From Escherichia coli O157:H7 (GTDB lineage Bacteria > Pseudomonadota > Gammaproteobacteria > Enterobacterales > Enterobacteriaceae): 64,000 bases of DNA. Within the stretch, counting starts at the first letter, position 1. Each line of letters begins with the position of its first letter. The translations under genes and the position numbers were made by a program. A model generated the notes under the pieces. That model was not told where the DNA came from. It made no database searches and saw nothing but the letters and a program-made list of their open reading frames with translations. Below, piece after piece: positions 6,550 to 59,661 of the stretch. The stretch lies in the NCBI RefSeq assembly GCF_013167455.1, contig NZ_CP038328.1. One strand, given 5' to 3'.

Positions 6550-7185
6550 TTGGCAACTCACGAGCGTCGTGTGGTGTTTTTTGACTTAGATGGAACATTG
6601 CATCAGCAGGATATGTTCGGCAGTTTTCTGCGCTATTTACTGCGTCGCCAACCGCTGAATGCGTTACTTGTCCTGCCGTTGTTGCCGATTATAGCCATTG
6701 CGTTATTGATAAAAGGTCGTGCGGCACGCTGGCCGATGAGTCTGCTTCTGTGGGGATGCACCTTTGGTCACAGCGAAGCACGTTTACAGGCGTTGCAGGC
6801 CGATTTCGTACGCTGGTTTCGTGACAATGTTACCGCCTTTCCGCTGGTTCAGGAGCGATTAACCACCTACCTGTTAAGTTCCGATGCTGATATCTGGTTG
6901 ATTACCGGTTCTCCACAGCCGCTGGTTGAAGCGGTCTATTTCGATACACCCTGGCTGCCGCGGGTGAATCTTATCGCCAGCCAAATTCAGCGTGGCTATG
7001 GTGGTTGGGTATTGACGATGCGTTGCCTCGGGCATGAAAAGGTCGCGCAACTGGAGCGCAAAATCGGCACGCCGCTGCGGCTGTACAGTGGCTATAGCGA
7101 CAGTAATCAGGACAACCCGCTGCTTTACTTTTGCCAGCATCGCTGGCGAGTAACCCCGCGCGGTGAACTCCAGCAACTGGAATAG
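6550..7185 (+). CDS. pgpC: Phosphatidylglycerophosphatase C
   Basis: 211-aa ORF with a TTG start and GGAG 8 nt upstream; HAD-like DLDGTL motif. Confidence 0.88.
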   Translation: MATHERRVVFFDLDGTLHQQDMFGSFLRYLLRRQPLNALLVLPLLPIIAIALLIKGRAARWPMSLLLWGCTFGHSEARLQALQADFVRWFRDNVTAFPLVQERLTTYLLSSDADIWLITGSPQPLVEAVYFDTPWLPRVNLIASQIQRGYGGWVLTMRCLGHEKVAQLERKIGTPLRLYSGYSDSNQDNPLLYFCQHRWRVTPRGELQQLE

Positions 7186-7197
7186 AGTAAAGCATAG

Positions 7198-9299
<2,102 letters not shown>

Positions 9300-9555: not shown

Positions 9556-12500
9556 ATGATGGAAATTCTGCGTGGTTCGCCTGCACTGTCGGCATTCCGA
9601 ATCAACAAACTGCTGGCACGTTTTCAGGCTGCCAGGCTCCCGGTTCACAATATTTACGCCGAGTATGTCCATTTTGCTGACCTCAATGCGCCGTTAAACG
9701 ATGATGAGCACGCACAACTTGAACGCCTGCTGAAATATGGCCCGGCACTCGCCAGCCACGCCCCGCAAGGCAAACTCCTGCTGGTGACCCCGCGTCCTGG
9801 CACCATCTCTCCCTGGTCTTCGAAAGCGACCGATATTGCTCATAACTGCGGGCTACAACAGGTAAACCGCCTTGAGCGCGGCGTTGCTTACTATATAGAA
9901 GCCGGTACGCTGACCAATGAACAATGGCAGCAGGTTACCGCTGAACTGCACGACCGCATGATGGAAACGGTCTTTTTTGCTTTAGATGATGCAGAGCAGT
10001 TGTTTGCCCACCATCAACCGACTCCGGTTACCAGCGTTGATTTGCTGGGGCAGGGCCGTCAGGCGCTGATCGACGCTAACCTGCGTCTTGGCCTGGCTCT
10101 GGCGGAAGATGAAATTGACTATCTGCAGGATGCTTTCACAAAGCTTGGTCGTAACCCGAACGACATCGAGCTGTATATGTTCGCTCAGGCGAACTCTGAG
10201 CACTGCCGCCACAAAATTTTTAATGCCGACTGGATTATCGACGGTGAACAGCAGCCGAAATCGCTGTTCAAGATGATCAAAAATACTTTCGAAACCACGC
10301 CAGATCACGTTCTCTCTGCTTATAAAGATAACGCCGCCGTAATGGAAGGTTCTGAAGTGGGCCGCTACTTTGCTGACCACGAAACGGGCCGCTACGATTT
10401 CCATCAGGAACCGGCGCATATTCTGATGAAAGTCGAAACTCACAACCACCCGACGGCGATTTCTCCGTGGCCGGGCGCGGCGACCGGTTCCGGCGGTGAA
10501 ATCCGCGATGAAGGTGCCACCGGGCGCGGCGCGAAGCCGAAAGCGGGTTTGGTTGGTTTCTCCGTTTCCAACCTGCGAATTCCTGGCTTCGAACAGCCGT
10601 GGGAAGAAGATTTCGGTAAGCCTGAGCGCATTGTCACCGCGCTGGACATCATGACCGAAGGCCCGCTGGGCGGCGCGGCGTTTAACAACGAATTTGGTCG
10701 TCCGGCACTGAATGGCTACTTCCGTACTTATGAAGAAAAAGTGAACAGCCACAACGGCGAAGAGCTGCGCGGTTATCACAAACCGATCATGCTGGCGGGC
10801 GGGATCGGCAACATTCGCGCCGATCACGTACAAAAAGGCGAGATCAACGTCGGTGCGAAACTGGTCGTTCTCGGCGGCCCGGCAATGAACATCGGTCTTG
10901 GCGGCGGAGCGGCGTCTTCCATGGCGTCAGGTCAGTCTGATGCCGACCTCGACTTTGCTTCCGTACAGCGCGACAACCCGGAGATGGAGCGTCGCTGCCA
11001 GGAAGTGATCGACCGTTGCTGGCAGCTTGGTGATGCCAACCCAATCCTGTTTATCCACGACGTCGGCGCTGGCGGTCTTTCTAACGCGATGCCGGAACTG
11101 GTGAGCGACGGCGGGCGCGGCGGTAAATTTGAACTGCGCGATATTCTAAGCGACGAACCGGGCATGAGCCCGCTGGAAATCTGGTGTAACGAATCCCAGG
11201 AACGCTACGTGCTGGCGGTTGCTGCCGATCAATTACCGCTGTTTGACGAACTGTGTAAGCGTGAGCGCGCACCCTACGCGGTGATTGGTGAAGCGACCGA
11301 AGAACTGCATCTTTCTCTGCACGATCGTCATTTTGATAATCAGCCGATCGATCTGCCGCTGGACGTCCTGCTTGGTAAAACGCCGAAGATGACCCGCGAT
11401 GTACAAACGCTGAAAGCGAAGGGCGATGCGCTGGTCCGTGAAGGGATCACCATTGCAGACGCGGTGAAACGCGTACTGCATCTGCCGACCGTGGCGGAGA
11501 AAACTTTCCTGGTGACCATCGGTGACCGCAGCGTAACCGGCATGGTGGCGCGCGATCAGATGGTGGGGCCGTGGCAGGTGCCGGTCGCTAACTGCGCGGT
11601 CACTACCGCCAGCCTCGACAGCTACTACGGTGAAGCGATGGCGATTGGCGAGCGTGCGCCGGTTGCGCTGCTGGATTTCGCCGCCTCTGCCCGTCTGGCG
11701 GTCGGTGAAGCGTTAACCAATATTGCCGCAACACAGATTGGCGATATCAAACGCATTAAACTTTCCGCCAACTGGATGGCGGCGGCAGGCCACCCTGGTG
11801 AAGATGCGGGCCTGTATGAAGCCGTTAAAGCCGTGGGCGAAGAGCTTTGTCCGGCGCTGGGCCTGACGATCCCGGTGGGTAAAGACTCTATGTCGATGAA
11901 AACCCGCTGGCAGGAAGGTAACGAAGAGCGCGAAATGACGTCGCCGCTGTCGCTGGTGATTTCTGCATTTGCCCGCGTGGAAGATGTACGTCACACCATC
12001 ACGCCGCAGCTTTCTACCGAAGATAACGCACTGCTGCTGATTGATTTGGGCAAAGGCAATAACGCGCTGGGCGCAACGGCGCTGGCGCAGGTTTATCGTC
12101 AGCTTGGCGACAAACCGGCAGATGTACGCGATGTCGCGCAACTGAAAGGCTTCTATGACGCGATTCAGGCGCTGGTTGCACAGCGTAAGTTGCTGGCGTA
12201 TCACGACCGCTCTGATGGCGGTCTGCTGGTAACGCTGGCGGAAATGGCCTTTGCTGGTCATTGCGGCATTGACGCGGATATCGCCACTCTGGGTGACGAT
12301 CGCCTGGCGGCGTTGTTTAACGAAGAACTGGGTGCGGTCATTCAGGTTCGTGCCGCTGACCGTGAAGCGGTCGAGTCCGTACTGGCACAGCATGGGCTTG
12401 CTGATTGCGTCCATTATGTTGGGCAGGCGGTTTCCGGTGACCGTTTTGTGATTACCGCCAACGGGCAGACTGTATTCAGCGAAAGCCGCACTACGTTGCG

Positions 12501-13443
12501 TGTCTGGTGGGCAGAAACTACCTGGCAGATGCAGCGCCTGCGTGACAACCCGGAGTGTGCCGATCAGGAGCATCAGGCGAAATCAAACGACGCCGATCCG
12601 GGCCTGAATGTGAAACTGTCGTTTGATATCAACGAAGATGTGGCAGCACCGTATATTGCCACTGGCGCACGTCCGAAAGTTGCTGTGCTGCGTGAGCAGG
12701 GCGTGAACTCGCATGTTGAAATGGCGGCAGCTTTCCACCGTGCAGGCTTCGATGCTATCGACGTGCATATGAGCGACCTGCTGGCTGGACGCACGGGCCT
12801 GGAGGATTTCCACGCCCTGGTCGCGTGCGGTGGTTTCTCCTACGGTGATGTGCTGGGTGCCGGTGAAGGTTGGGCGAAGTCTATCCTGTTCAATGACCGT
12901 GTACGCGATGAGTTTGCAACCTTCTTCCACCGTCCGCAAACGCTGGCGCTGGGGGTATGTAACGGTTGCCAGATGATGTCTAATCTGCGTGAACTGATCC
13001 CAGGTAGTGAGTTGTGGCCACGTTTTGTGCGCAATACCTCCGATCGCTTTGAAGCGCGTTTCAGCTTGGTTGAAGTGACCCAAAGCCCGTCGCTGCTGTT
13101 GCAGGGGATGGTGGGCTCGCAAATGCCGATTGCTGTCTCTCATGGTGAAGGGCGCGTGGAAGTGCGTGATGCGGCGCATCTGGCGGCACTGGAAAGCAAA
13201 GGGCTGGTGGCACTGCGCTATGTCGATAACTTCGGCAAAGTCACTGAAACCTACCCGGCTAACCCGAACGGTTCTCCGAACGGTATTACGGCGGTCACGA
13301 CTGAAAGCGGTCGAGTCACCATTATGATGCCGCACCCGGAACGTGTTTTCCGTACTGTCAGCAACTCCTGGCATCCTGAAAACTGGGGCGAGGATGGCCC
13401 ATGGATGCGCATTTTCCGCAATGCACGTAAGCAGTTGGGGTAA
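9556..13443 (+). CDS. purL: Phosphoribosylformylglycinamidine synthase
   Basis: 1295-aa product from the internal ATG ([14 protein letters not shown]); the longest ORF begins at 9448. Confidence 0.96.
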
Positions 13444-13466
13444 GCCGTCAAACTCATTGGTTTTGC

Positions 13467-13498
13467 AGCCCGGATGAGGCATTCACGCCGCATCCGGC
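13467..13498. repeat. REP-like palindromic element
   Basis: GCCCGGATGAGGCATTCACGCCGCATCCGGC, the same motif family seen at 31177 and 49762. Confidence 0.5.
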
Positions 13499-13520
13499 AT
13501 TAAATACAACCGCTATTATA

Positions 13521-13546
13521 AGCTCCCAACTTCGGGAGCTTTTTTG
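13521..13546 (+). terminator. purL rho-independent terminator (AGCTCCC / GGGAGCT plus a T6 run)
   Basis: Hairpin and U-tract read in the sequence. Confidence 0.7.
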
Positions 13547-13579
13547 TGTCTGTAAATCACGACAATGGGTGGTTTACCG

Positions 13580-13660
13580 TGTCGCTTTCTGGCGACACTT
13601 AAATGATTGATTTTATTGTAATCTAATAAGTTTTTCTTAAGTTGTCTCTTTTTAGCGACA
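13580..13660 (+). promoter_or_regulatory. Two GlrR-type activator sites (TGTCGC-N6-GCGACA at 13580-13597; TGTCTC-N6-GCGACA at 13643-13660)
   Basis: Two palindromes upstream of the sigma-54 promoter of glmY; GlrR is the known activator of glmY. Confidence 0.55.
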
Positions 13661-13749
13661 CAGTGGCTGATTTACATTCAAATAGCGGGGAAGCCATAAA
13701 CCCCTCAAAGCAACGTATAATCAGTACGTTACCAAACTATTTTCTTTAT

Positions 13750-13765
13750 TGGCACAGTTACTGCA
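13750..13765 (+). promoter_or_regulatory. Sigma-54 promoter (TGGCAC-N5-CTGCA) for glmY
   Basis: -24 GG and -12 GC elements with the correct spacing, ending about 12 nt upstream of the glmY 5' end. Confidence 0.6.
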
Positions 13766-13776
13766 TAATAGTAATC

Positions 13777-13960
13777 AGTGGCTCATTCACCGACTTATGT
13801 CAGCCCCTTCGGGACGTGCTACATAAAATTCGAATGACGCACAACAAGGTGCCTGCCGTCCAACTTCTGATATCAGCGTAGCTATATCAACCATCGGGCG
13901 AAACGTCGAGTTAGGCACCGCCTTATTCCATAACAAAGCCGGGTAATTCCCGGCTTTGTT
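13777..13960 (+). ncRNA. glmY: GlmY small RNA
   Basis: Sequence AGTGGCTCATTCACCGACTTATGTCAGCCCCTTCGGGACG... recognised as GlmY; ends in the hairpin AAAGCCGGG/CCCGGCTTT plus U-tract; about 184 nt. Confidence 0.85.
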
Positions 13961-14018
13961 GTATCTGAACTTCCCCTCGGTTAGCATCAGGCTATTCGCG
14001 TCTGACGAGAGTAACACC

Positions 14019-15446
14019 TTGAAACGCTGGCCCGTTTTTCCCCGCTCATTACGACAACTGGTAATGCTGGCATTTTTGCTGATTCTGCTGCCCCTGTTGG
14101 TGCTGGCATGGCAAGCCTGGCAAAGCCTGAATGCGCTTAGCGACCAGGCGGCGCTGGTCAACCGCACCACGCTTATCGATGCCCGGCGCAGCGAAGCAAT
14201 GACCAACGCGGCGCTGGAGATGGAGCGTAGCTACCGTCAGTATTGCGTGCTGGATGACCCTACGCTTGCGAAGGTTTATCAAAGCCAGCGCAAGCGTTAC
14301 AGCGAAATGCTCGATGCCCACGCAGGCGTACTGCCAGACGATAAACTTTACCAGGCATTGCGTCAGGACTTGAACAATCTGGCCCAACTTCAGTGCAACA
14401 ACAGTGGTCCCGATGCTGCTGCTGCCGCGCGTCTGGAAGCCTTTGCCAGTGCCAATACCGAAATGGTACAGGCCACGCGCACAGTAGTGTTCTCTCGTGG
14501 GCAGCAACTTCAGCGTGAAATCGCCGAACGTGGGCAATATTTTGGTTGGCAATCGCTGGTGCTATTTCTGGTGAGTCTGGTAATGGTACTGCTTTTCACG
14601 CGGATGATTATCGGGCCGGTGAAAAATATTGAACGGATGATCAATCGGTTGGGGGAAGGGCGTTCTCTGGGCAATAGCGTTTCGTTCAGTGGACCGAGCG
14701 AGTTACGCTCGGTTGGGCAACGTATTCTTTGGTTAAGTGAGCGCCTGTCATGGCTGGAATCCCAACGCCATCAATTTTTAAGACATTTATCTCATGAATT
14801 AAAAACGCCACTGGCGAGTATGCGCGAGGGCACTGAATTACTGGCTGATCAGGTTGTCGGGCCGCTTACGCCAGAGCAAAAAGAGGTGGTGAGCATTCTT
14901 GATAGCAGCAGCCGCAATTTGCAAAAACTGATCGAACAACTGCTTGATTACAACCGTAAACAGGCGGACAGTGCGGTGGAACTAGATAATGTTGAGTTAG
15001 CACCGCTGGTGGAGACAGTAGTTTCTGCTCATAGCCTGCCCGCACGGGCTAAAATGATGCATACCGACGTCGATCTCAAAGCAACAGCTTGCCTGGCGGA
15101 GCCAATGCTGCTGATGAGCGTACTGGATAATCTTTACTCCAATGCGGTGCACTACGGGGCTGAATCCGGTAACATTTGCCTTCGCAGCAGTTTACATGGT
15201 GCGCGGGTTTATATTGATGTCATCAATACAGGCACGCCCATTCCGCAAGAGGAACGCGCCATGATCTTCGAACCCTTTTTTCAGGGAAGCCACCAGCGAA
15301 AAGGGGCGGTGAAGGGCAGCGGTCTGGGATTAAGCATTGCCAGGGATTGTATTCGCCGTATGCAAGGGGAACTGTATCTGGTCGACGAGAGCGGGCAAGA
15401 CGTTTGTTTCCGCATTGAATTACCGTCGTCGAAAAACACGAAATAA
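14019..15446 (+). CDS. glrK: Sensor histidine kinase GlrK
   Basis: 475-aa product from a TTG start; transmembrane N-terminus, H-box HELKTPL and an ATPase domain. Confidence 0.88.
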   Translation: MKRWPVFPRSLRQLVMLAFLLILLPLLVLAWQAWQSLNALSDQAALVNRTTLIDARRSEAMTNAALEMERSYRQYCVLDDPTLAKVYQSQRKRYSEMLDAHAGVLPDDKLYQALRQDLNNLAQLQCNNSGPDAAAAARLEAFASANTEMVQATRTVVFSRGQQLQREIAERGQYFGWQSLVLFLVSLVMVLLFTRMIIGPVKNIERMINRLGEGRSLGNSVSFSGPSELRSVGQRILWLSERLSWLESQRHQFLRHLSHELKTPLASMREGTELLADQVVGPLTPEQKEVVSILDSSSRNLQKLIEQLLDYNRKQADSAVELDNVELAPLVETVVSAHSLPARAKMMHTDVDLKATACLAEPMLLMSVLDNLYSNAVHYGAESGNICLRSSLHGARVYIDVINTGTPIPQEERAMIFEPFFQGSHQRKGAVKGSGLGLSIARDCIRRMQGELYLVDESGQDVCFRIELPSSKNTK

Positions 15447-48469: not shown

Positions 48470-49753
48470 ATGACAGAAGCGATGAAGATTACCCTCTCTA
48501 CCCAACCTGCCGACGCGCGCTGGGGAGAAAAAGCAACTTACAGCATTAATAATGACGGCATTACCCTGCATTTGAACGGGGCAGACGATCTGGGGCTGAT
48601 CCAGCGTGCGGCGCGCAAGATTGACGGTCTGGGCATCAAGCATGTTCAGTTAAGCGGTGAAGGCTGGGATGCGGATCGATGCTGGGCATTCTGGCAAGGT
48701 TACAAAGCCCCGAAAGGCACGCGTAAAGTGGAGTGGCCGGATCTGGACGATGCCCAGCGCCAGGAACTGGATAACCGCCTGATGATCATCGACTGGGTGC
48801 GTGACACCATCAACGCACCGGCAGAAGAATTGGGACCATCGCAACTGGCACAGCGTGCTGTTGATCTGATCAGCAACGTCGCGAGCGATCGTGTGACTTA
48901 TCGGATCACCAAAGGCGAAGATCTGCGTGAGCAAGGTTATATGGGGCTGCACACCGTCGGACGCGGTTCAGAACGTTCTCCGGTATTGCTGGCGCTGGAT
49001 TACAACCCAACTGGCGATAAAGAAGCGCCAGTGTACGCGTGCCTGGTAGGTAAAGGTATCACTTTTGACTCCGGCGGCTACAGCATCAAACAGACTGCGT
49101 TTATGGACTCGATGAAGTCGGACATGGGCGGCGCGGCAACGGTTACCGGGGCGCTGGCATTTGCCATTACGCGCGGACTGAACAAGCGCGTGAAGCTGTT
49201 CCTCTGCTGTGCGGATAACCTGATTAGCGGCAATGCGTTCAAGCTGGGCGATATCATCACTTATCGCAACGGTAAAAAAGTTGAAGTGATGAACACTGAT
49301 GCCGAAGGGCGCCTGGTGCTTGCCGATGGTCTGATTGATGCCAGTGCGCAGAAACCGGAAATGATCATTGATGCGGCGACCCTCACCGGGGCGGCGAAAA
49401 CTGCGCTGGGTAATGATTATCACGCGCTGTTCAGTTTTGACGATGCGCTTGCCGGTCGTTTGCTGGCGAGTGCCTCACAAGAGAACGAACCATTCTGGCG
49501 TCTGCCGCTGGCGGAATTCCACCGCAGCCAGCTGCCGTCTAACTTTGCCGAACTGAACAATACCGGAAGCGCGGCGTATCCGGCAGGCGCGAGCACGGCA
49601 GCGGGCTTCCTGTCGCACTTTGTTGAGAACTATCAGCAAGGCTGGCTGCATATCGACTGCTCGGCGACTTACCGTAAAGCGCCGGTTGAACAGTGGTCTG
49701 CGGGTGCTACGGGACTTGGTGTGCGCACGATTGCTAATCTGTTAACGGCGTAA
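48470..49753 (+). CDS. pepB: Peptidase B (M17 aminopeptidase)
   Basis: 427-aa product from the internal ATG ([11 protein letters not shown]) with an AAGGA Shine-Dalgarno; NTDAEGRL motif. Confidence 0.9.
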
Positions 49754-49761
49754 ACTAATAT

Positions 49762-49860
<99 letters not shown>

Positions 49861-49895
49861 CTTGTGCCCCGAACGTTGAATGAATTGTGGTTCTT

Positions 49896-50672
49896 ATGTC
49901 CGAAACAAAAAATGAACTTGAAGACCTGCTGGAAAAAGCAGCAACCGAACCGGCGCACCGCCCGGCCTTTTTCCGTACTCTACTGGAATCCACCGTCTGG
50001 GTGCCTGGTACGGCGGCGCAGGGCGAGGCTGTGGTTGAAGATAGCGCGCTTGATTTACAGCACTGGGAAAAAGAAGACGGCACCAGCGTCATTCCTTTTT
50101 TTACCTCGTTAGAAGCACTTCAACAGGCGGTTGAAGACGAACAGGCATTTGTCGTAATGCCCGTTCGCACATTGTTTGAGATGACCCTTGGCGAAACGCT
50201 CTTCCTTAATGCCAAACTGCCGACCGGTAAAGAATTTATGCCGCGTGAAATCAGTTTGTTGATTGGTGAAGAGGGAAATCCGCTGAGCAGCCAGGAAATC
50301 CTGGAAGGCGGTGAATCGCTGATATTATCGGAAGTCGCAGAGCCGCCAGCACAAATGATTGATTCACTCACCACCTTATTTAAAACCATTAAGCCTGTGA
50401 AGCGTGCTTTTATTTGTTCAATTAAAGAGAACGAAGAGGCACAGCCTAATTTACTTATTGGCATTGAAGCCGATGGTGATATCGAAGAAATTATTCAGGT
50501 GGCGGGAAGTGTAGCGACCGATACATTACCTGGCGATGAACCAATCGATATTTGTCAGGTGAAAAAAGGGGAAAAAGGAATTAGCCACTTTATTACCGAA
50601 CATATTGCGCCATTCTATGAACGTCGCTGGGGTGGTTTTTTGCGTGACTTTAAACAGAATCGGATAATCTAA
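49896..50672 (+). CDS. sseB: SseB family protein
   Basis: 258-aa product from the internal ATG (MSETKNELEDLLEKA). Confidence 0.88.
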   Translation: MSETKNELEDLLEKAATEPAHRPAFFRTLLESTVWVPGTAAQGEAVVEDSALDLQHWEKEDGTSVIPFFTSLEALQQAVEDEQAFVVMPVRTLFEMTLGETLFLNAKLPTGKEFMPREISLLIGEEGNPLSSQEILEGGESLILSEVAEPPAQMIDSLTTLFKTIKPVKRAFICSIKENEEAQPNLLIGIEADGDIEEIIQVAGSVATDTLPGDEPIDICQVKKGEKGISHFITEHIAPFYERRWGGFLRDFKQNRII

Positions 50673-50675
50673 AAT

Positions 50676-50990
50676 ATGCCGCCCCAAAGGGCGGCATTCG
50701 GGCTTACCTGCTGCTCTGAAGGTTGTTAATCACCAGTAAATTGTCGCCGGAGAGACTCCGGTTATTATTTACCTCGGTTAACAGCGCACCAGAAACAATA
50801 AGTACGATACAGAAGCACCGTATCTTCATTGTGCGGTCCATGCGAAGACCGCATCACGACAGCACCACTGGCGATATTGCCGCGATAGCAAGCACTGTGG
50901 GGTGCCTGTATTTACGGTCATGGAACATTCTTTCCTAAAGCCAGCGCCCGTTTGCGAGACGGCGAAAAGGGCCATTAAGAATAATACTCT
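50676..50990 (-). ncRNA. ryfA: ryfA-like transcript (a short mRNA annotated as an sRNA); 5' end uncertain
   Basis: Minus-strand rho-independent terminator at 50676-50697 (ATGCCGCCC/GGGCGGCAT then a U-rich tail); position between sseB and sseA matches ryfA. Confidence 0.45.
50704..50829 (-). CDS. Candidate small hydrophobic protein inside the ryfA transcript (41 aa, MKIRCFCIVLIVSGALLTEVNNNRSLSGDNLLVINNLQSSR; TimP-like toxin candidate)
   Basis: ORF below the track cutoff, read by hand on the minus strand; stop lies 7 nt before the terminator hairpin; alternative in-frame start at 50841; no strong Shine-Dalgarno. Confidence 0.3.
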   Translation of the reverse strand: MKIRCFCIVLIVSGALLTEVNNNRSLSGDNLLVINNLQSSR

Positions 50991-51049
50991 CATGTTTGAA
51001 TAATTACTCTGTTTATTATCTTGGCACAGCCAGGCATAAAAGAGAGTAT

Positions 51050-51155
51050 TTCAACACTGTGGGGTGCCTGCGTTGCTCCGGCAACACAAGTCAACCTGCT
51101 GGAAAGGCCGCGAACCAGACCAGCAATAAAAAACCGCCAAATTCGGCGGTTTTTT
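51050..51155 (+). ncRNA. Candidate divergent antisense sRNA (TimR-like)
   Basis: Contains CACTGTGGGGTGCCTG (51056-51071), the same 16-mer found at 50894-50909; ends at the plus-strand terminator 51127-51155; weak TTGGCA-N17-GAGTAT promoter at 51021-51049. Confidence 0.25.
51127..51155. terminator. Bidirectional rho-independent terminator (AAAAACCGCC / GGCGGTTTTT)
   Basis: Hairpin flanked by A/T runs on both sides, directly 3' of sseA. Confidence 0.65.
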
Positions 51156-51171
51156 ATTGCCTGTAAAAAGC

Positions 51172-52017
51172 TTATTTCAATGGCTCAACCGGTAAATCTG
51201 CCCGCGCGCCCCATTCACTCCATGCGCCGTCGTACAGTTTCACGTTTGGCACATCCAGCGTCGCGAGTGCCAACAAAACCACGGCTGCTGTTACACCAGA
51301 GCCGCAGCTGACGATAATTGGTTTGTCATAGCTGACGCCGCGACCAAAAAATATCGCATCCAGTTCATCGGTCGTTTTTAGTTCGCCTTCGCGCACCAGT
51401 TCCGTCCACGGAACGTTCAATGCACCGGGAATATGTCCGCGACGTAAACCTGGGCGAGGTTCATCAACTTCTGCGTTAAAACGTGCAGCCGGGCGGGCAT
51501 CAATAATTTGCGCCGTATTTTCATGGCTTGCCAATAACACATCGGTTACTTTCACCACTGCTTCAGGATTAAACGCGGCGTTAAACTCTCCTTCCGGCAG
51601 CTCTACTGCACCTTCTTCTAACAACAGATCATCGCGCTGCCAGCCTGCAAGTCCACCCCCCAGAATCGACACTTTCTCTACACCAAAGGTGCGCAGCATC
51701 CACCATGCTCGTGGGGCTGAGAAAAGATTACCTTCGTCATAGACAATCAGGTGCTTATCCTGGTTAACGCCTAATTCACGCATCGCCACGGCGAACGTTT
51801 CCGGGCGCGGCAGCATGTGCGGAAGCGGGGAAGTGTGATCAGAAAGCGCTTCGATATCAAAAAACACTGCGCCGGGAATATGTCCATTCAGATACTCCTG
51901 AGCAACGTTACGATCTTCCTGTCCAGGCGACGCCATGCGGGCATCGATAATCTGAATTTCCGGGTCATCAATATGTTCGGCGAGCCAGTCGGCTCCTACA
52001 AACCATGTCGTGGACAT
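51172..52017 (-). CDS. sseA: 3-mercaptopyruvate sulfurtransferase
   Basis: 281-aa product from the internal ATG (MSTTWFVGADW); tandem rhodanese domains with the CGSGVTA active-site loop. Confidence 0.9.
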   Translation of the reverse strand: MSTTWFVGADWLAEHIDDPEIQIIDARMASPGQEDRNVAQEYLNGHIPGAVFFDIEALSDHTSPLPHMLPRPETFAVAMRELGVNQDKHLIVYDEGNLFSAPRAWWMLRTFGVEKVSILGGGLAGWQRDDLLLEEGAVELPEGEFNAAFNPEAVVKVTDVLLASHENTAQIIDARPAARFNAEVDEPRPGLRRGHIPGALNVPWTELVREGELKTTDELDAIFFGRGVSYDKPIIVSCGSGVTAAVVLLALATLDVPNVKLYDGAWSEWGARADLPVEPLK

Positions 52018-52223
52018 AGGCATCTCCATTTTTGCCGGGGTTAGGCTAAATTGTCGGATGTTTAGTGAAAAGCGACAAGCAAAAGAGGCTGATTTGGCTG
52101 TCTGAGCCACAATTCTCACTAAAATTCGGATTGTATGGGCGTGATACTGAATTACATAACGTAAATTCTCACGCATAATAATTATTCGACGTTGCTAACG
52201 GGCCATTGTGGCAGGGATGAAAA

Positions 52224-55200
52224 ATGAAAAAGTTACGCGTAGCCGCCTGCATGCTAATGCTGGCGCTGGCAGGGTGCGACAACAACGATAACGCGCCAAC
52301 AGCGGTGAAAAAAGATGCGCCTTCTGAAGTTACTAAAGCGGCCTCTTCAGAAAACGCGAGTTCAGCAAAACTCTCCGCGCCAGAGCGACAAAAACTGGCC
52401 CAACAGAGTGCCGGTAAGGCGCTGACATTGCTGGATCTCTCTGAAGTCCAACTTGATGGTGCAGCCACGCTGGTGCTGACGTTCTCCATCCCTCTCGACC
52501 CGGATCAGGATTTCTCACGCGTTATTCATGTCGTCGATAAAAAAAGCGGCAAAGTGGATGGTGCCTGGGAGCTATCAGATAATCTTAAAGAGCTGCGTTT
52601 ACGCCACCTCGAACCGAAACGTGATTTGATCGTTACAATTGGCAAGGAGGTCAAAGCACTCAACAACGCAACCTTCAGTAAAGATTACGAAAAAACTATA
52701 ACTACCCGCGACATCCAACCCAGTGTCGGTTTTGCCAGCCGTGGTTCGCTGCTGCCTGGTAAAGTCGTTGAAGGGCTGCCGGTAATGGCGCTCAACGTTA
52801 ATAATGTCGATGTTAACTTCTTCCGCGTTAAGCCAGAATCTCTGCCAGCATTCATTAGCCAATGGGAATACCGCAATTCGCTGGCGAACTGGCAGTCAGA
52901 CAAACTGCTGCAGATGGCGGATCTGGTCTACACCGGACGGTTTGATCTCAATCCTGCGCGTAACACCCGTGAAAAATTATTGCTGCCGCTGGGCGATATC
53001 AAACCGCTTCAGCAGGCGGGCGTGTATCTGGCTGTGATGAATCAGGCTGGACGTTACGATTACAGTAATCCCGCGACGCTGTTTACGTTAAGTGATATCG
53101 GCGTTTCAGCTCACCGTTATCACAATCGTCTGGATATCTTTACCCAAAGTCTGGAAAACGGCGCGGCCCAGCAAGGAATTGAAGTCTCTTTATTAAATGA
53201 GAAAGGGCAGACTCTGACTCAGGCAACCAGTGACGCTCAGGGGCATGTGCAGCTGGAAAATGATAAAAACGCCGCATTATTGCTGGCACGTAAAGACGGT
53301 CAGACAACGCTACTCGATTTAAAACTTCCGGCGCTGGACTTAGCAGAATTTAACATTGCTGGCGCGCCAGGCTATAGCAAACAGTTTTTCATGTTTGGCC
53401 CGCGCGATCTTTATCGCCCGGGTGAAACGGTAATCCTCAATGGTTTGCTGCGTGATGCAGACGGTAAAGCGTTGCCCAATCAACCCATCAAGTTAGACGT
53501 GATTAAACCCGATGGGCAGGTACTCAGGAGCGTCGTTAGTCAGCCGGAAAATGGCCTCTACCACTTTACCTGGCCACTCGATAGCAATGCGGCAACCGGT
53601 ATGTGGCATATTCGCGCTAACACGGGCGATAACCAGTATCGGATGTGGGATTTCCACGTCGAAGATTTTATGCCAGAGCGTATGGCGCTGAATCTGACCG
53701 GTGAGAAAACCCCGCTTACGCCGAATGATGAAGTGAAATTCTCCGTGGTGGGATACTACCTGTACGGTGCGCCTGCTAATGGTAATACTTTGCAAGGGCA
53801 ACTTTTCCTGCGCCCACTGCGTGAGGCTGTGTCAGCCTTACCTGGTTTTGAATTCGGCGATATAGCTGCCGAAAACCTTTCCCGCACGCTGGATGAAGTT
53901 CAGTTGACGCTGGATGATAAAGGGCGCGGCGAAGTTTCTACAGAAAGCCAGTGGAAGGAAACGCATTCCCCATTGCAGGTTATTTTCCAGGGCAGTTTGC
54001 TGGAATCGGGCGGTCGCCCGGTGACGCGCCGCGCTGAGCAGGCTATCTGGCCTGCCGATGCATTGCCGGGGATCCGTCCGCAGTTCGCCTCGAAATCGGT
54101 TTACGATTATCGCACTGACAGCACGGTGAAACAGCCCATTGTTGATGAAGGCAGTAACGCCGCTTTTGACATCGTTTATAGCGATGCGCAAGGCGTGAAA
54201 AAAGCCGTGTCGGGCTTGCAGGTGCGCCTGATTCGCGAACGCCGCGATTACTACTGGAACTGGTCAGAAGATGAAGGCTGGCAATCACAGTTTGATCAAA
54301 AAGATCTGATTGAAAATGAACAAACTCTGGATCTGAAAGCGGACGAAACCGGCAAGGTCAGTTTCCCGGTAGAGTGGGGCGCTTATCGTCTGGAAGTCAA
54401 AGCGCCGAATGAAGCGGTCAGTAGTGTTCGTTTTTGGGCTGGCTATAGCTGGCAGGATAATAGCGACGGTAGCGGCGCAGTGCGACCCGACCGTGTCACG
54501 CTGAAACTGGATAAAGCCGGTTATCGCCCTGGCGATACCATTAAGTTGCATATCGCCGCGCCAACGGCGGGTAAAGGTTATGCGATGGTCGAGTCCAGTG
54601 AAGGGCCGCTGTGGTGGCAAGAGATTGATGTTCCGGCTCAAGGGCTGGATCTGACGATTCCGGTCGATAAAACCTGGAATCGTCATGATCTTTATTTGAG
54701 TACGCTGGTGGTGCGTCCTGGCGATAAATCTCGCTCCGCGACGCCAAAACGCGCGGTTGGTGTGTTGCATCTGCCGCTTGGTGATGAAAACCGTCGCCTC
54801 GATCTGGCGCTGGAAACACCAGCAAAAATGCGTCCCAATCAACCATTAACCGTGAAAATTAAAGCCAGCACTAAAAATGGCGAGAAGCCTAAACAGGTGA
54901 ATGTGCTGGTGTCTGCCGTTGATAGTGGTGTGCTGAATATTACTGACTACGTCACGCCAGATCCGTGGCAGGCGTTCTTTGGTCAGAAACGCTATGGCGC
55001 AGACATTTACGATATTTACGGTCAGGTTATTGAAGGTCAGGGGCGTCTGGCAGCTCTGCGTTTCGGTGGCGATGGTGATGAGCTGAAACGTGGTGGTAAA
55101 CCGCCGGTCAATCACGTCAATATTGTCGCGCAGCAGGCGCTGCCGGTAACGCTCAACGAACAGGGCGAAGGCTCGGTTACACTGCCGATTGGCGATTTTA

Positions 55201-57185
55201 ACGGTGAATTGCGCGTCATGGCGCAAGCCTGGACGGCAGATGAATTCGGTAGCAACGAAAGCAAAGTGATAGTTGCCGCACCGGTGATTGCTGAACTGAA
55301 CATGCCGCGCTTTATGGCGAGTGGCGATAACTCGCGTCTGACGCTGGATATCACTAATCTTACCGATAAACCGCAAAAACTGAACGTTGCCCTGACCGCC
55401 AGTGGTTTGCTTGAACTGGTCAGCGATTCACCCGCAGCCGTTGAATTAGCGCCAGGTGTGCGTACTACGCTGTTTATCCCGGTGCGAGCATTGCCGGGTT
55501 ATGGCGATGGAGAAATTCAGGCCACCATTAGCGGGTTAGCGTTACCGGGTGAAACCGTTGCCGATCAGCATAAGCAGTGGAAAATCGGCGTCCGTCCGGC
55601 GTTCCCGGCACAAACGGTTAATTACGGTACGGCGTTACAGCCTGGTGAGACATGGGCGATTCCGGCGGATGGATTGCAAAACTTCTCGCCTGTTACGCTG
55701 GAAGGGCAATTGTTGTTGAGCGGCAAACCACCGCTGAACATCGCACGTTATATCAAAGAGTTAAAAGCGTATCCGTACGGCTGTCTTGAGCAAACCGCCA
55801 GCGGCCTGTTCCCGTCACTTTATACCAACGCAGCCCAACTGCAGGCGTTGGGCATCAAAGGCGACAGTGATGAGAAACGCCGTGCATCGGTCGATATCGG
55901 CATTTCCCGTTTGCTGCAAATGCAACGTGATAACGGCGGCTTTGCGCTGTGGGATAAAAACGGTGACGAAGAGTACTGGCTGACGGCTTACGTGATGGAT
56001 TTCCTGGTCCGCGCAGGCGAACAGGGTTACAGCGTGCCGACAGACGCCATTAACCGGGGTAATGAGCGTCTGCTGCGCTATTTACAAGATCCGGGCATGA
56101 TGTCGATCCCGTACGCGGATAATCTCAAAGCCAGTAAATTCGCCGTACAGTCTTACGCTGCGCTGGTGTTGGCCCGTCAGCAAAAGGCTCCGCTGGGTGC
56201 GCTGCGTGAAATCTGGGAGCATCGTGCAGATGCCGCTTCTGGTTTACCGCTGCTGCAACTTGGCGTTGCGCTGAAAACCATGGGTGATGCGACGCGTGAT
56301 GAAGAAGCGATTGCGCTGGCGCTAAAAACGCCGCGTAATAGTGATGAGCGGATATGGCTGGGTGATTACGGTAGTCCACTGCGCGACAACGCGTTGATGC
56401 TCTCCTTGCTGGAAGAGAACAAACTGCTACCCGATGAGCAGTACTCCCTGCTGAACACACTTTCGCAGCAGGCGTTTGGTGAACGCTGGCTATCGACGCA
56501 GGAAAGTAACGCGTTGTTCCTGGCTGCCCGTACGATTCAGGATTTACCAGGTAAATGGCAGGCGCAAACCTCTTTCTCAGCTGAGCCGCTGACAGGCGAG
56601 AAAGCGCAAAACAGCAATCTGAATAGCGATCAACTTGCCACCTTGCAGGTGACCAACAGTGGCGAGCAGCCGTTATGGCTGCGTGTGGATGCCAGCGGTT
56701 ATCCGCAATCCGCACCTTTACCGGCGAACAATGTGCTGCAAATTGAGCGTCATATTCTTGGTACTGATGGTAAGAGCAAATCGCTGGACTCGTTACGTAG
56801 CGGCGATCTGGTGCTGGTCTGGTTGCAGGTAAAAGCTAGTAACAGCGTGCCGGATGCGTTAGTCGTGGATCTGCTGCCTGCGGGTCTGGAACTGGAAAAC
56901 CAGAATCTGGCGAACGGTAGCGCCAGCCTGGAGCAAAGTGGTGGCGAAGTGCAGAACTTACTGAACCAGATGCAGCAGGCGAGTATTAAGCACATTGAGT
57001 TCCGTGACGATCGCTTTGTGGCGGCGGTTGCCGTTGATGAATACCAACCGGTAACGCTGGTGTATCTGGCGCGGGCGGTGACGCCGGGAACGTATCAGGT
57101 ACCGCAACCGATGGTGGAATCAATGTATGTTCCCCAATGGCGGGCGACCGGCGCGGCTGAAGATTTGCTGATTGTCAGACCGTAA
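52224..57185 (+). CDS. yfhM: Alpha-2-macroglobulin family lipoprotein
   Basis: 1653 aa; lipobox LALAGC; thioester motif CLEQ. Confidence 0.95.
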   Translation: MKKLRVAACMLMLALAGCDNNDNAPTAVKKDAPSEVTKAASSENASSAKLSAPERQKLAQQSAGKALTLLDLSEVQLDGAATLVLTFSIPLDPDQDFSRVIHVVDKKSGKVDGAWELSDNLKELRLRHLEPKRDLIVTIGKEVKALNNATFSKDYEKTITTRDIQPSVGFASRGSLLPGKVVEGLPVMALNVNNVDVNFFRVKPESLPAFISQWEYRNSLANWQSDKLLQMADLVYTGRFDLNPARNTREKLLLPLGDIKPLQQAGVYLAVMNQAGRYDYSNPATLFTLSDIGVSAHRYHNRLDIFTQSLENGAAQQGIEVSLLNEKGQTLTQATSDAQGHVQLENDKNAALLLARKDGQTTLLDLKLPALDLAEFNIAGAPGYSKQFFMFGPRDLYRPGETVILNGLLRDADGKALPNQPIKLDVIKPDGQVLRSVVSQPENGLYHFTWPLDSNAATGMWHIRANTGDNQYRMWDFHVEDFMPERMALNLTGEKTPLTPNDEVKFSVVGYYLYGAPANGNTLQGQLFLRPLREAVSALPGFEFGDIAAENLSRTLDEVQLTLDDKGRGEVSTESQWKETHSPLQVIFQGSLLESGGRPVTRRAEQAIWPADALPGIRPQFASKSVYDYRTDSTVKQPIVDEGSNAAFDIVYSDAQGVKKAVSGLQVRLIRERRDYYWNWSEDEGWQSQFDQKDLIENEQTLDLKADETGKVSFPVEWGAYRLEVKAPNEAVSSVRFWAGYSWQDNSDGSGAVRPDRVTLKLDKAGYRPGDTIKLHIAAPTAGKGYAMVESSEGPLWWQEIDVPAQGLDLTIPVDKTWNRHDLYLSTLVVRPGDKSRSATPKRAVGVLHLPLGDENRRLDLALETPAKMRPNQPLTVKIKASTKNGEKPKQVNVLVSAVDSGVLNITDYVTPDPWQAFFGQKRYGADIYDIYGQVIEGQGRLAALRFGGDGDELKRGGKPPVNHVNIVAQQALPVTLNEQGEGSVTLPIGDFNGELRVMAQAWTADEFGSNESKVIVAAPVIAELNMPRFMASGDNSRLTLDITNLTDKPQKLNVALTASGLLELVSDSPAAVELAPGVRTTLFIPVRALPGYGDGEIQATISGLALPGETVADQHKQWKIGVRPAFPAQTVNYGTALQPGETWAIPADGLQNFSPVTLEGQLLLSGKPPLNIARYIKELKAYPYGCLEQTASGLFPSLYTNAAQLQALGIKGDSDEKRRASVDIGISRLLQMQRDNGGFALWDKNGDEEYWLTAYVMDFLVRAGEQGYSVPTDAINRGNERLLRYLQDPGMMSIPYADNLKASKFAVQSYAALVLARQQKAPLGALREIWEHRADAASGLPLLQLGVALKTMGDATRDEEAIALALKTPRNSDERIWLGDYGSPLRDNALMLSLLEENKLLPDEQYSLLNTLSQQAFGERWLSTQESNALFLAARTIQDLPGKWQAQTSFSAEPLTGEKAQNSNLNSDQLATLQVTNSGEQPLWLRVDASGYPQSAPLPANNVLQIERHILGTDGKSKSLDSLRSGDLVLVWLQVKASNSVPDALVVDLLPAGLELENQNLANGSASLEQSGGEVQNLLNQMQQASIKHIEFRDDRFVAAVAVDEYQPVTLVYLARAVTPGTYQVPQPMVESMYVPQWRATGAAEDLLIVRP

Positions 57186-59498
57186 ATGCCTCGCTTGTTA
57201 ACCAAACGCGGCTGCTGGATAACGCTGGCAGCTGCGCCATTTCTCCTTTTTCTTGCAGCGTGGGGAGCAGATAAACTCTGGCCTCTACCGCTGCATGAAG
57301 TCAATCCCGCACGAGTGGTCGTGGCGCAGGATGGTACGCCGCTCTGGCGCTTCGCCGATGCTGACGGCATCTGGCGTTATCCTGTAACAATCGAAGATGT
57401 TTCTCCACGTTACCTTGAAGCGCTGATCAATTATGAAGATCGCTGGTTCTGGAAGCATCCTGGGGTGAATCCATTCTCGGTGGCGCGCGCAGCATGGCAA
57501 GATCTCACTTCGGGACGGGTTATTTCCGGTGGCAGCACGCTCACTATGCAGGTTGCTCGTCTGCTTGATCCTCACCCCAAAACATTTGGCGGCAAAATTC
57601 GCCAGCTCTGGCGCGCGTTGCAACTGGAATGGCATCTGTCTAAGCGTGAAATTCTGACCTTGTATCTTAACCGCGCTCCGTTTGGCGGTACGTTGCAGGG
57701 GATCGGTGCGGCAAGTTGGGCTTATCTCGGAAAGTCGCCTGCGAATTTAAGCTATTCCGAGGCGGCAATGCTGGCGGTTTTGCCGCAAGCGCCCAGCCGT
57801 CTTCGCCCGGATCGTTGGCCGGAGCGTGCCGAAGTCGCGCGTAATAAAGTGCTCGAACGGATGGCCGTGCAAGGTGTGTGGTCCCGTGAGCAGGTAAAAG
57901 AGTCAAGGGAAGAACCCATCTGGCTGGCACCCCGACAAATGCCGCAACTGGCACCGCTGTTTTCGCGCATGATGCTCGGTAAAAGCAAAAGCGACAAAAT
58001 CGTTACTACGCTGGATGCCGGTCTTCAACGACGTCTGGAAGAACTGGCGCAAAACTGGAAAGGACGATTACCACCGCGCAGCTCACTGGCGATGATCGTG
58101 GTTGATCATACCGATATGCGTGTTCGCGGCTGGGTGGGTTCGGTTGATCTCAACGATGATTCACGCTTTGGTCATGTTGATATGGTCAATGCGATCCGAT
58201 CGCCAGGATCGGTGCTCAAACCGTTTGTTTACGGTCTGGCGCTGGATGAAGGATTGATCCACCCGGCATCACTGCTGCAAGACGTCCCCCGGCGTACCGG
58301 TGATTACCGACCTGGCAACTTTGACAGCGGTTTTCATGGCCCGATCAGCATGAGCGAGGCGCTGGTGCGCTCGCTGAATTTACCTGCTGTGCAGGTGCTG
58401 GAAGCCTATGGACCGAAACGGTTTGCGGCAAAGTTACGCAATGTTGGATTGCCGTTATATTTGCCCAACGGTGCTGCGCCGAATCTTTCGCTCATTCTCG
58501 GCGGCGCTGGTGCGAAACTGGAAGATATGGCGGCAGCGTATACCGCGTTTGCTCGCCACGGCAAGGCAGGCAAATTGCGCTTACAGCCTGACGATCCGCT
58601 GCTTGAACGGCCTTTAATGTCGTCGGGAGCGGCGTGGATCATTCGCCGGATTATGGCTGATGAAGCGCTACCCTTGCCGGATGGTGCCTTGCCGCGCGTC
58701 GCCCCACTGGCATGGAAAACGGGCACCAGCTATGGCTATCGTGACGCCTGGGCGATTGGGGTTAACGCTCGCTATGTCATTGGGATCTGGACTGGCAGAC
58801 CGGACGGCACGCCCGTTGTTGGTCAGTTTGGTTTTGCCAGCGCCGTACCATTGTTGAATCAGGTCAATAATATCTTACTGTCGCGCAGTGCTAATCTGCC
58901 GGAAGACCCGCGCCCGAACTCAGTCACTCGTGGCGTTATTTGCTGGCCGGGCGGACAGTCTTTGCCGGAAGGTGACGGTAACTGTCGCCGCCGCCTGGCA
59001 ACCTGGCTGCTGGACGGGAGTCAGCCGCCAACTCTATTACTGCCGGAGCAGGAAGGCATTAATGGCATTCGTTTCCCCATCTGGCTGGATGAAAATGGCA
59101 AACGTGTTGCCGCTGATTGCCCGCAAGCGCGACAAGAAATGATAAATGTCTGGCCGCTACCGCTGGAACCCTGGTTGCCCGCATCAGAACGTCGCGCTGT
59201 GCGCTTACCACCGGCCTCGACAATTTGCCCGCCATACGGTCACGATGCCCAGCTCCCGCTGCAGCTGACAGGCGTTCGCGATGGCGAGATTATTAAACGT
59301 TTACCGGGCGCAGCGGAAGCGACTTTGCCGTTGCAATCAAGTGGAGGGGCAGGTGAACGCTGGTGGTTTCTGAATGGCGAACCGTTAACTGAACGCGGGC
59401 GCAACGTGACCCTGCATTTGACGGATAAAGGTGATTATCAATTGCTGGTGATGGATGACGTAGGGCAAATCGCGTCAGTACATTTTTCATTTCAGTGA
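57186..59498 (+). CDS. pbpC: Penicillin-binding protein 1C
   Basis: 770 aa; ATG directly abuts the yfhM stop; glycosyltransferase and transpeptidase motifs. Confidence 0.95.
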   Translation: MPRLLTKRGCWITLAAAPFLLFLAAWGADKLWPLPLHEVNPARVVVAQDGTPLWRFADADGIWRYPVTIEDVSPRYLEALINYEDRWFWKHPGVNPFSVARAAWQDLTSGRVISGGSTLTMQVARLLDPHPKTFGGKIRQLWRALQLEWHLSKREILTLYLNRAPFGGTLQGIGAASWAYLGKSPANLSYSEAAMLAVLPQAPSRLRPDRWPERAEVARNKVLERMAVQGVWSREQVKESREEPIWLAPRQMPQLAPLFSRMMLGKSKSDKIVTTLDAGLQRRLEELAQNWKGRLPPRSSLAMIVVDHTDMRVRGWVGSVDLNDDSRFGHVDMVNAIRSPGSVLKPFVYGLALDEGLIHPASLLQDVPRRTGDYRPGNFDSGFHGPISMSEALVRSLNLPAVQVLEAYGPKRFAAKLRNVGLPLYLPNGAAPNLSLILGGAGAKLEDMAAAYTAFARHGKAGKLRLQPDDPLLERPLMSSGAAWIIRRIMADEALPLPDGALPRVAPLAWKTGTSYGYRDAWAIGVNARYVIGIWTGRPDGTPVVGQFGFASAVPLLNQVNNILLSRSANLPEDPRPNSVTRGVICWPGGQSLPEGDGNCRRRLATWLLDGSQPPTLLLPEQEGINGIRFPIWLDENGKRVAADCPQARQEMINVWPLPLEPWLPASERRAVRLPPASTICPPYGHDAQLPLQLTGVRDGEIIKRLPGAAEATLPLQSSGGAGERWWFLNGEPLTERGRNVTLHLTDKGDYQLLVMDDVGQIASVHFSFQ

Positions 59499-59592
59499 AA
59501 TATACAAAATATTTATTAATCTAATTATGGTATTTATATTTGGAATGCATTAATAATTTAATAATCTCACGTTTTTTTAAACGACTAATTAT

Positions 59593-59606
59593 TTGATTGT
59601 TATCAG
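59593..59606 (+). promoter_or_regulatory. FNR-like site (TTGAT-TGTT-ATCAG) upstream of the molybdoenzyme operon
   Basis: 9 of 10 matches to the FNR consensus TTGAT-N4-ATCAA, in the AT-rich leader 56 nt upstream of the start. Confidence 0.4.
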
Positions 59607-59661
59607 CATTGTTCTCGAATAAATACGTGAATATTTATTTTTTCATTTTCGGGAACGCAAG

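Follow-up and report, generated by a model that had tools for sequence, protein, structure and literature searches.

The closest described counterparts of the locus reported here are YfhM of Escherichia coli K-12, also called ECAM, a bacterial alpha-2-macroglobulin (A2M), and its genomic neighbor PbpC, penicillin-binding protein 1C (PBP1C). Doan & Gettins 2008, cited by PMC4498604 and PMC3328433, reported a thioester bond and covalent capture of proteases in K-12 ECAM, Cys1187 and Gln1190 are named as the thioester pair (Fyfe et al. 2015, PMC4498604), and the sequence identity of ECAM to human A2M is about 12% (PMC4498604). For K-12 PBP1C, enzymatic activity in the form of glycan polymerization and beta-lactam binding is credited to Schiffer & Holtje 1999, as cited in PMC3328433. 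Bacterial A2Ms of the class with a CxEQ motif usually adjoin pbpC (PMC3735191, PMC4498604, PMC3328433), and published work describes yfhM and pbpC as "frequently found in an operon". Budd 2004, in the form in which PMC4498604 and PMC3328433 cite it, had already put forward the pairing, the thioester, and the idea of a periplasmic "defence and repair" module. Here we examine the yfhM-pbpC pair of E. coli O157:H7 in a stretch of 64,000 nucleotides from contig NZ_CP038328.1 (assembly GCF_013167455.1), that whole stretch being called the window, with positions counted from its first letter. Our reading, to which we give a probability of roughly 0.85, is that the pair is the core enterobacterial yfhM-pbpC unit, the ECAM trap plus PBP1C, transcribed together and with pbpC probably coupled in translation to the gene before it.

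The ORF (open reading frame) listing places yfhM at 52224..57185 on the + strand, with 1653 amino acids from an ATG start, and pbpC at 57186..59498 on the same strand, with 770 amino acids and likewise an ATG start. The letters at the boundary, AGA CCG TAA ATG CCT CGC, run from the end of yfhM into the start of pbpC, with the stop TAA at 57183-57185 and the ATG at 57186-57188, so that the TAAATG junction (57183..57188, + strand) has a gap of 0. The initial annotation had called the genes translationally abutted, with contiguous stop and start, and the contiguity is just as it said, the term being accurate as a description of the geometry. Zero-nucleotide spacing is ordinary between genes of one operon. 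K-12 MG1655 has the same TAAATG and the same gap of 0, with pbpC at 2645013-2647325 and yfhM at 2647326-2652287. Several O157:H7-type chromosomes of E. coli, such as that of strain NADC 5570/86-24, match the section 52000-59700 of the window at 100% identity, and on a 100%-identical O157:H7 record RefSeq gives the order as sseA (divergent), yfhM (alpha2-macroglobulin), pbpC (peptidoglycan glycosyltransferase PbpC), 4 genes of a reductase island, and ndk. The yfhM-pbpC region is present in 5425 of 5426 complete E. coli genomes, always single-copy and chromosomal, and an 80-nt probe spanning the junction matches 4384 genomes at 90% identity or higher. The arrangement is core to E. coli, and the pair, the thioester, the structures, and the defence-and-repair idea are already known.

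Read from its sequence, YfhM (52224..57185, + strand; assigned from its ORF, Pfam, and the Protein Data Bank [PDB]) is a type I, thioester-bearing bacterial A2M lipoprotein, having the lipobox, the CXEQ motif, the bait region with the macroglobulin (MG), CUB, and TED series, the RDDR and EXMY motifs, and the adjacency to pbpC. Its Pfam matches, all above cut-offs, come in the order bMG1, A2M_bMG2, bMG3, MG2, bMG5, bMG6, A2M_BRD, A2M, TED_complement, CUB_A2MG, and bMG10, and the protein is near-identical to the E. coli structures PDB 4RTD, 4ZIQ, and 5A42 and close to Salmonella 4U48. No NCBIfam model matches YfhM at E <= 1e-10, so its family membership rests on Pfam and PDB. Relative to K-12 (b2520), the protein is 99% identical with 16 amino acid substitutions, and none of these falls in the thioester motif or in residues 805-968, the span inside which the bait core lies.

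The thioester motif CLEQ, Cys1187 to Gln1190 within YPYGCLEQT, is encoded at 55782..55793 on the + strand (TGTCTTGAGCAA) and is the sole CxEQ in YfhM. The initial annotation had estimated its position as about 55780, which is 2 bases off, and had proposed an alignment as the check; in that alignment, CLEQ falls column for column on the CLEQ of 4RTD, 4ZIQ, 5A42, and 4U48. When residues 1152-1303 are aligned alone, CLEQ again lands on the CLEQ of the structures, and weak matches to C4A, CD109, and A2ML1 extend over the thioester region. At the N-terminus, MKKLRVAACMLMLALAGC18-D is a signal peptide with the lipobox LAGC, Leu15 to Cys18, at 52266..52277 on the + strand (sequence MKKLRVAACMLMLALAGCDNNDN), followed by Asp19. 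By the established +2 rule, an Asp at the +2 position of a lipoprotein is a signal for retention at the inner membrane, and because LAGC is followed by Asp, YfhM would be placed at the inner membrane. The lipobox Cys of ECAM has been described in PMC3735191. The bait-region core, residues 923-942 at 54990..55049 on the + strand, is identical to that of K-12; its range is taken from PMC4498604, in which Arg923-Leu942 are disordered and missing from the crystal of elastase-cleaved ECAM, and the Pfam A2M_BRD match spans residues 759-905. Toward the C-terminus, 57003..57128 on the + strand encodes RDDR (residues 1594-1597) and ESMY (1632-1635), the latter being the EXMY motif. Both motifs belong to the C-terminal MG domain, where they touch the thioester domain or the bait after cleavage, and shield the thioester (PMC4498604).

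By the sequence here and the published structures and biochemistry of the 99%-identical K-12 protein, YfhM is a lipoprotein of 1653 residues that is tethered at the inner membrane and faces the periplasm. Proteases arriving there would cut the bait region, which would release the thioester domain, and the freed Cys1187-Gln1190 thioester would then link covalently to the protease and leave it trapped, a mechanism established for the K-12 protein. From the 99% identity to ECAM, we infer that the O157 protein likewise forms the thioester bond and captures proteases.

The partner, pbpC (57186..59498, + strand), encodes penicillin-binding protein 1C, a spare cell-wall synthase and class A penicillin-binding protein with glycosyltransferase, transpeptidase, and BiPBP_C domains, as identified from its ORF, Pfam, and NCBIfam. 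It scores 1563 bits against the NCBIfam equivalog NF008414 (cut-off 1121) and 912 bits against TIGR02073 PBP_1c (cut-off 494). In Pfam it matches Transgly (E = 1e-51), Transpeptidase, and BiPBP_C, the last of which is typical of PBP1C and covers residues 687-767 (59244..59486, + strand; PF06832, 60.4 bits against a cut-off of 26.8). A membrane anchor is predicted at about residues 10-28, CWITLAAAPFLLFLAAWGA (57213..57269, + strand), with a Kyte-Doolittle mean of 1.8 over 19 residues, and PBP1c has been described as anchored by one transmembrane region (PMC3328433).

Conservation was assessed in a survey in which PbpC was compared with cluster representatives, giving an alignment of 40 full-length homologs that are 32-59% identical to the E. 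coli protein, and this alignment then served to scan one genome per species, which returned 79 loci. The survey replaced an earlier homolog listing for PbpC in which, among the matches listed, a near-identical cluster was followed mostly by Citrobacter-type sequences at about 86% identity. The glycosyltransferase motif EDRWF (57435..57449, + strand) contains the catalytic Glu84, which is at least 90% conserved, and Asp85, which is invariant in the 40 homologs; the same domain also carries GGSTLTMQ, conserved to at least 90% as well. The transpeptidase motifs, which lie in 58209..58724 on the + strand, are S342-V-L-K (58209-58220), S396-L-N (58371-58379), and K511-T-G (58716-58724), all at least 90% conserved in the 40 sequences. 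All 79 PBP1C loci have both the ED..F motif and SxxK. From K-12 (b2519), PbpC differs by 11 amino acid substitutions. A PDB search with PbpC found no PBP1C structure, the best matches being PBP1a proteins. PbpC is a class A penicillin-binding protein anchored in the membrane, with its glycosyltransferase and transpeptidase motifs intact and with the PBP1C-specific C-terminal domain. Between the transpeptidase and BiPBP_C domains, in residues 586-681 (58941-59228), there are also 4 cysteines, C586, C600, C645, and C681, which are invariant or at least 90% conserved in the 40 homologs, and this pattern suggests 2 periplasmic disulfides.

In 72 of the 79 species-level genomes with a PBP1C homolog, a YfhM homolog is encoded upstream on the same strand. 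The paired loci extend through Enterobacterales, Pseudomonas, Xanthomonadales, Aeromonas, Betaproteobacteria, Alphaproteobacteria, Desulfobacter, and metagenome-assembled genomes (MAGs) labelled Acidobacteria and Nitrospinota; the pair is found across Gamma-, Beta-, Alpha-, and Deltaproteobacteria. The initial annotation had considered the pairing of the protease trap with the peptidoglycan synthase to be conserved, which agrees with this count and with what is stated in PMC4498604, PMC3328433, and PMC7554673. With the same order and strand in 5425 of 5426 E. coli genomes and in 72 of 79 at the species level, the adjacency is not a matter of chance. Among the exceptions, a gammaproteobacterial MAG (L021) has the order reversed, with the PBP1C homolog at 7001-9229 followed by the A2M homolog at 9672-14396 on the same strand. 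In 3 more (L062, L032, and L030) the sequence available upstream is 142, about 2000, and about 3050 nt, into which a full A2M gene of ~5 kb cannot fit, and in L053, L056, and L060 the PBP1C homolog has no A2M within 7 kb upstream. Every A2M beside pbpC that could be scored (70 of 70) keeps the CxEQ, as CLEQ in 34, CAEQ in 21, CSEQ in 9, CIEQ in 3, CTEQ in 2, and CVEQ in 1, and this is independent support for the published adjacency of the CxEQ class to pbpC. In a mostly alphaproteobacterial set (L059, L061, and L064-L081), the PBP1C homologs can be aligned with E. coli PbpC no further than about residue 560-660, and their C-terminal region is divergent or missing, yet a CxEQ A2M precedes them, and stop and start often overlap as ATGA.

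What varies among the relatives is the spacing of the junction. The gap is 0 nt in E. albertii and two Citrobacter species, +1 nt in two Enterobacter species and Superficieibacter, and +3 nt in Mangrovibacter. It widens to about 50-60 nt in Yersinia and Photorhabdus, 400-750 nt in Pseudomonas, and 4.4-5.3 kb in two Xanthomonas species, while several Alphaproteobacteria have a gap of -4 nt, the ATGA overlap. With starts chosen by homology, 25 of the 72 junctions lie within -60 to +30 nt, ATGA overlaps included. On the junctions compared, the exact abutment TAAATG is a local state of Escherichia and Citrobacter and not a conserved trait of the pair.

For the E. coli version of the junction, we consider how pbpC would be transcribed and translated. 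The divergent intergenic region between sseA and yfhM (52018..52223, 206 bp, neither strand assigned, with the sseA start at 52017 taken from the annotation) is the presumed promoter region of the pair and is 100% identical to K-12. Consensus scanning for promoters and terminators was done over 51800-59800. The + strand site ATTACA-17-CATAAT at 52151-52179 matches at 9 of 12 positions and is a candidate only, because shuffled sequence gave site counts at least as high. At or near the junction, the + strand scan found no promoter-like or terminator-like site, which is a weak test given counts like those of shuffled sequence. The 20 nt preceding the pbpC start (57164..57183, + strand) lack a Shine-Dalgarno (SD) sequence, the anti-SD duplex scoring +0.4 kcal/mol, as against -6.0 for yfhM and -10 to -11.6 kcal/mol for reductase genes B and C of the downstream island. 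Of the windows sampled inside yfhM, 93% pair more strongly, and the junction and its upstream region are identical in K-12. A different, SD-bearing start for pbpC was looked for and rejected, as the sole candidates in the first 70 codons, a TTG (codon 4) and two GTGs (codons 44 and 46), all lack an SD, and the equivalog aligns from residue 1. A lack of SD combined with an ATG that touches the yfhM stop argues that the translation of pbpC is probably due mainly to ribosomes reinitiating after they have terminated on yfhM. In this scheme, yfhM and pbpC would be transcribed together from the sseA-yfhM intergenic region, and ribosomes ending on yfhM would reinitiate at the pbpC ATG, tying PbpC output to YfhM output. 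We infer both the co-transcription and the coupling from these features of the DNA.

A stronger version, that in Escherichia and Citrobacter PbpC synthesis might depend entirely on ribosomes that finish YfhM and reinitiate at UAAAUG without an SD, we offer tentatively and consider somewhat doubtful. If it were true, the cell would produce the wall synthase in a small, constant proportion to the protease trap and at the membrane site that the trap occupies, and a physical YfhM-PbpC complex could be favored. To our knowledge, an interaction of YfhM with PbpC has been proposed in the literature and never shown. As for RNA structure, a hairpin at the E. coli junction (-48.5 kcal/mol, z = -3.3), in which the ATG region is paired to yfhM 3' coding sequence as would suit a mechanism of coupling, was dropped as a functional element because it is not conserved in 9 enterobacterial junctions (consensus -3.65 kcal/mol with essentially no covariation). 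There is also a perfect 12-bp inverted repeat at 57207-57236 on the + strand (region GCGGCTGCTGGA...GCTGGCAGCTGCGC), in the part of pbpC coding for the anchor, which adds to the low folding energy of the junction and is not conserved outside Escherichia.

Several points weigh against the pair as a co-transcribed, probably coupled, and cooperating unit. The exact abutment is not kept, tight junctions being common and not universal, and the gaps of 50-60 nt, 400-750 nt, and more than 4 kb indicate that the A2M-PBP1C partnership does not need coupling. The predicted hairpin fails to extend to other Enterobacteriaceae, and we found no report of yfhM-pbpC co-transcription or coupling in the open-access literature. 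A genomic SELEX (systematic evolution of ligands by exponential enrichment) study with RpoE holoenzyme has a peak inside yfhM, at K-12 position 2649866, or about 54645 in the window, which could mark an internal promoter. PBP1c has been described as without a known role in making peptidoglycan under standard conditions in the laboratory, and functional cooperation of YfhM and PbpC is itself a hypothesis.

The published form of that hypothesis has the pair acting as a periplasmic defence-and-repair module, in which YfhM would capture the protease and PbpC would patch the peptidoglycan. The most probable of the alternatives is that the genes stay together through having been acquired and passed on as one horizontally mobile block without cooperating, PBP1C having a role unrelated to protease defence; we think this rather unlikely. 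The lack of a known peptidoglycan role just mentioned speaks for it, as does the first activity-associated phenotype reported for PBP1c, which is unrelated to proteases: overproduced with LdtD, PBP1c restores labelling by NADA (a nitrobenzofurazan-tagged amino-D-alanine) in the absence of PBP1b. Budd 2004, going by its citation in PMC4498604 and PMC3328433, moreover argues for a horizontal-transfer origin of bacterial A2Ms, and the survey has the 3 loci with no A2M in the 7 kb upstream and the one in reverse order. Against it, order and strand persist down to about 30% identity for the A2M and 40% for PBP1C, over 4 proteobacterial classes and with the catalytic motifs of both proteins kept, and persistence at such deep divergence points to long-term joint selection rather than to recent co-transfer alone.

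A second alternative takes up the SELEX peak, and has pbpC mostly expressed alone from a promoter inside yfhM, such as an envelope-stress promoter for sigma-E, with SD-independent initiation, the zero gap being a product of genome compaction. Besides the peak at about 54645, the separations of 50-750 nt in many other genera lend it some weight, since independent initiation of pbpC must be possible there. The SELEX signal is, however, in vitro binding, and a third of the RpoE peaks in that study are intragenic with no promoter assigned. A search of yfhM for GGAACTT-N15-17-TCAAA found no match of at least 10 of 12 on either strand, for which reason the internal sigma-E promoter was set aside as a feature and kept only as a low-probability rival, and the sigma-70 scan has no + strand promoter-like site between 52179 and 59265. 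pbpC also has no SD, and its start region is weaker than 93% of the windows sampled inside yfhM. We judge this improbable, and continue with pbpC as the second gene of a unit transcribed from upstream of yfhM.

The initial annotation had a reductase-family operon following immediately after the pair in this strain, and such an operon does follow, with the qualifications that it begins 163 nt downstream, belongs to a separate island, and occurs in 380 of 5426 complete E. coli genomes. The island is accessory, ~4.87 kb by K-12 alignment, and occupies 59477..64000 on the + strand of the window, continuing to about 64346 past its end. The genomes that have it are mostly O157:H7, and it is absent from 93% and from K-12, where ndk comes 148 bp after pbpC with no reductase operon between. 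The similarity to K-12 breaks off at roughly 59477-59480, about 20 nt short of the pbpC stop, and resumes 16-19 nt into the K-12 pbpC-ndk spacer (~64346). Its genes, all on the + strand, which encode a reductase of the DmsABC/YnfEFGH type, are a DMSO (dimethyl sulfoxide)/selenate-family reductase A at 59662-62043 (TIGR02166, 1122 bits against a cut-off of 778), which scores below the cut-offs of the DmsA, YnfE, and YnfF exception models; reductase B at 62040-62669 (TIGR02951, 266 bits against 214); a DmsC-type anchor at 62662-63483 (Pfam DmsC, 84 bits against 22); and, by annotation, a 4Fe-4S protein, which begins at 63483 and is truncated at the end of the window. We regard the operon as an unrelated accessory island, a neighboring context outside the yfhM-pbpC unit.

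The island's left edge falls within pbpC, at its 3' end, and this alters the last 7 codons and the stop: PbpC ends in ASVHFSFQ where K-12 has ATVKFVMQ, with T764S, K766H, V768S, and M769F, and the stop is TGA instead of TAG. This rewritten end is a small curiosity for O157:H7 genomics. That transcription reads through from pbpC into the island of O157:H7, giving a longer operon, specific to the strain, in which envelope defence would be connected with anaerobic respiration, is the least probable alternative of all, for although the consensus scan has no + strand terminator-like site after pbpC and the island is merely 163 nt away on the same strand, that spacer is extremely A+T-rich and resembles a typical foreign promoter region, the island was inserted as a unit and is absent from 93% of E. 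coli, reductase A is itself provided with a weak SD-like match (-4.3 kcal/mol), and DMSO-reductase-family operons are normally under anaerobiosis control. In Superficieibacter electus (L006, 9487-11829), a reductase A subunit 84% identical to that of 59662-62043 is encoded directly after pbpC. Judged from these sequences, the reductase operon may have a recurrent or ancestral site in the gap between pbpC and ndk.

Elsewhere in the window, the RNA ryfA is encoded at 50671-50975 on the - strand, scoring 323 bits in Rfam, and contains timP (50704-50829, - strand), a gene for a small toxic inner-membrane protein; ryfA/timP is a known locus between sseB and sseA. An Rfam scan of 49000-64000 gave no match besides ryfA. 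Further upstream, yphC (29188-30282, + strand), of the zinc-dependent alcohol dehydrogenase family, has an internal stop at codon 75 and is given as a pseudogene in a matching O157:H7 record.

Set against the known systems, O157 YfhM goes with K-12 YfhM/ECAM and the Salmonella A2M of 4U48 as type I, agreeing in the 1653 amino acids, the domain order, the lipobox, the bait region, CLEQ at 1187-1190, and RDDR/EXMY, and it shares with K-12 the genomic position between sseA and pbpC; it differs from K-12 in its 16 substitutions, which spare the thioester and residues 805-968. PbpC resembles its K-12 counterpart in the 770 amino acids, the 3 domains, all catalytic motifs, and the TAAATG junction, and differs in 11 substitutions, 4 of them in the last 7 codons, and in the TGA stop where K-12 has TAG. 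With the type II A2Ms, namely those of Pseudomonas aeruginosa magABCDEF and the E. coli YfaS class, YfhM has in common the macroglobulin fold family and the periplasmic location (PMC3735191), whereas MagD is without the lipobox Cys and CXEQ and is encoded in a 6-gene operon instead of beside pbpC (PMC3735191); having all the type I features, YfhM does not fall in the type II class. More distant are the eukaryotic thioester proteins, to which YfhM has weak matches, including human A2M (E = 2.6e-06, in an MG domain), C4A (E = 4e-04), CD109, and A2ML1. Unlike human A2M, A2ML1, CD109, and complement C3/C4, the bacterial protein is tethered to the membrane as a lipoprotein and has additional MG domains of bacterial type.

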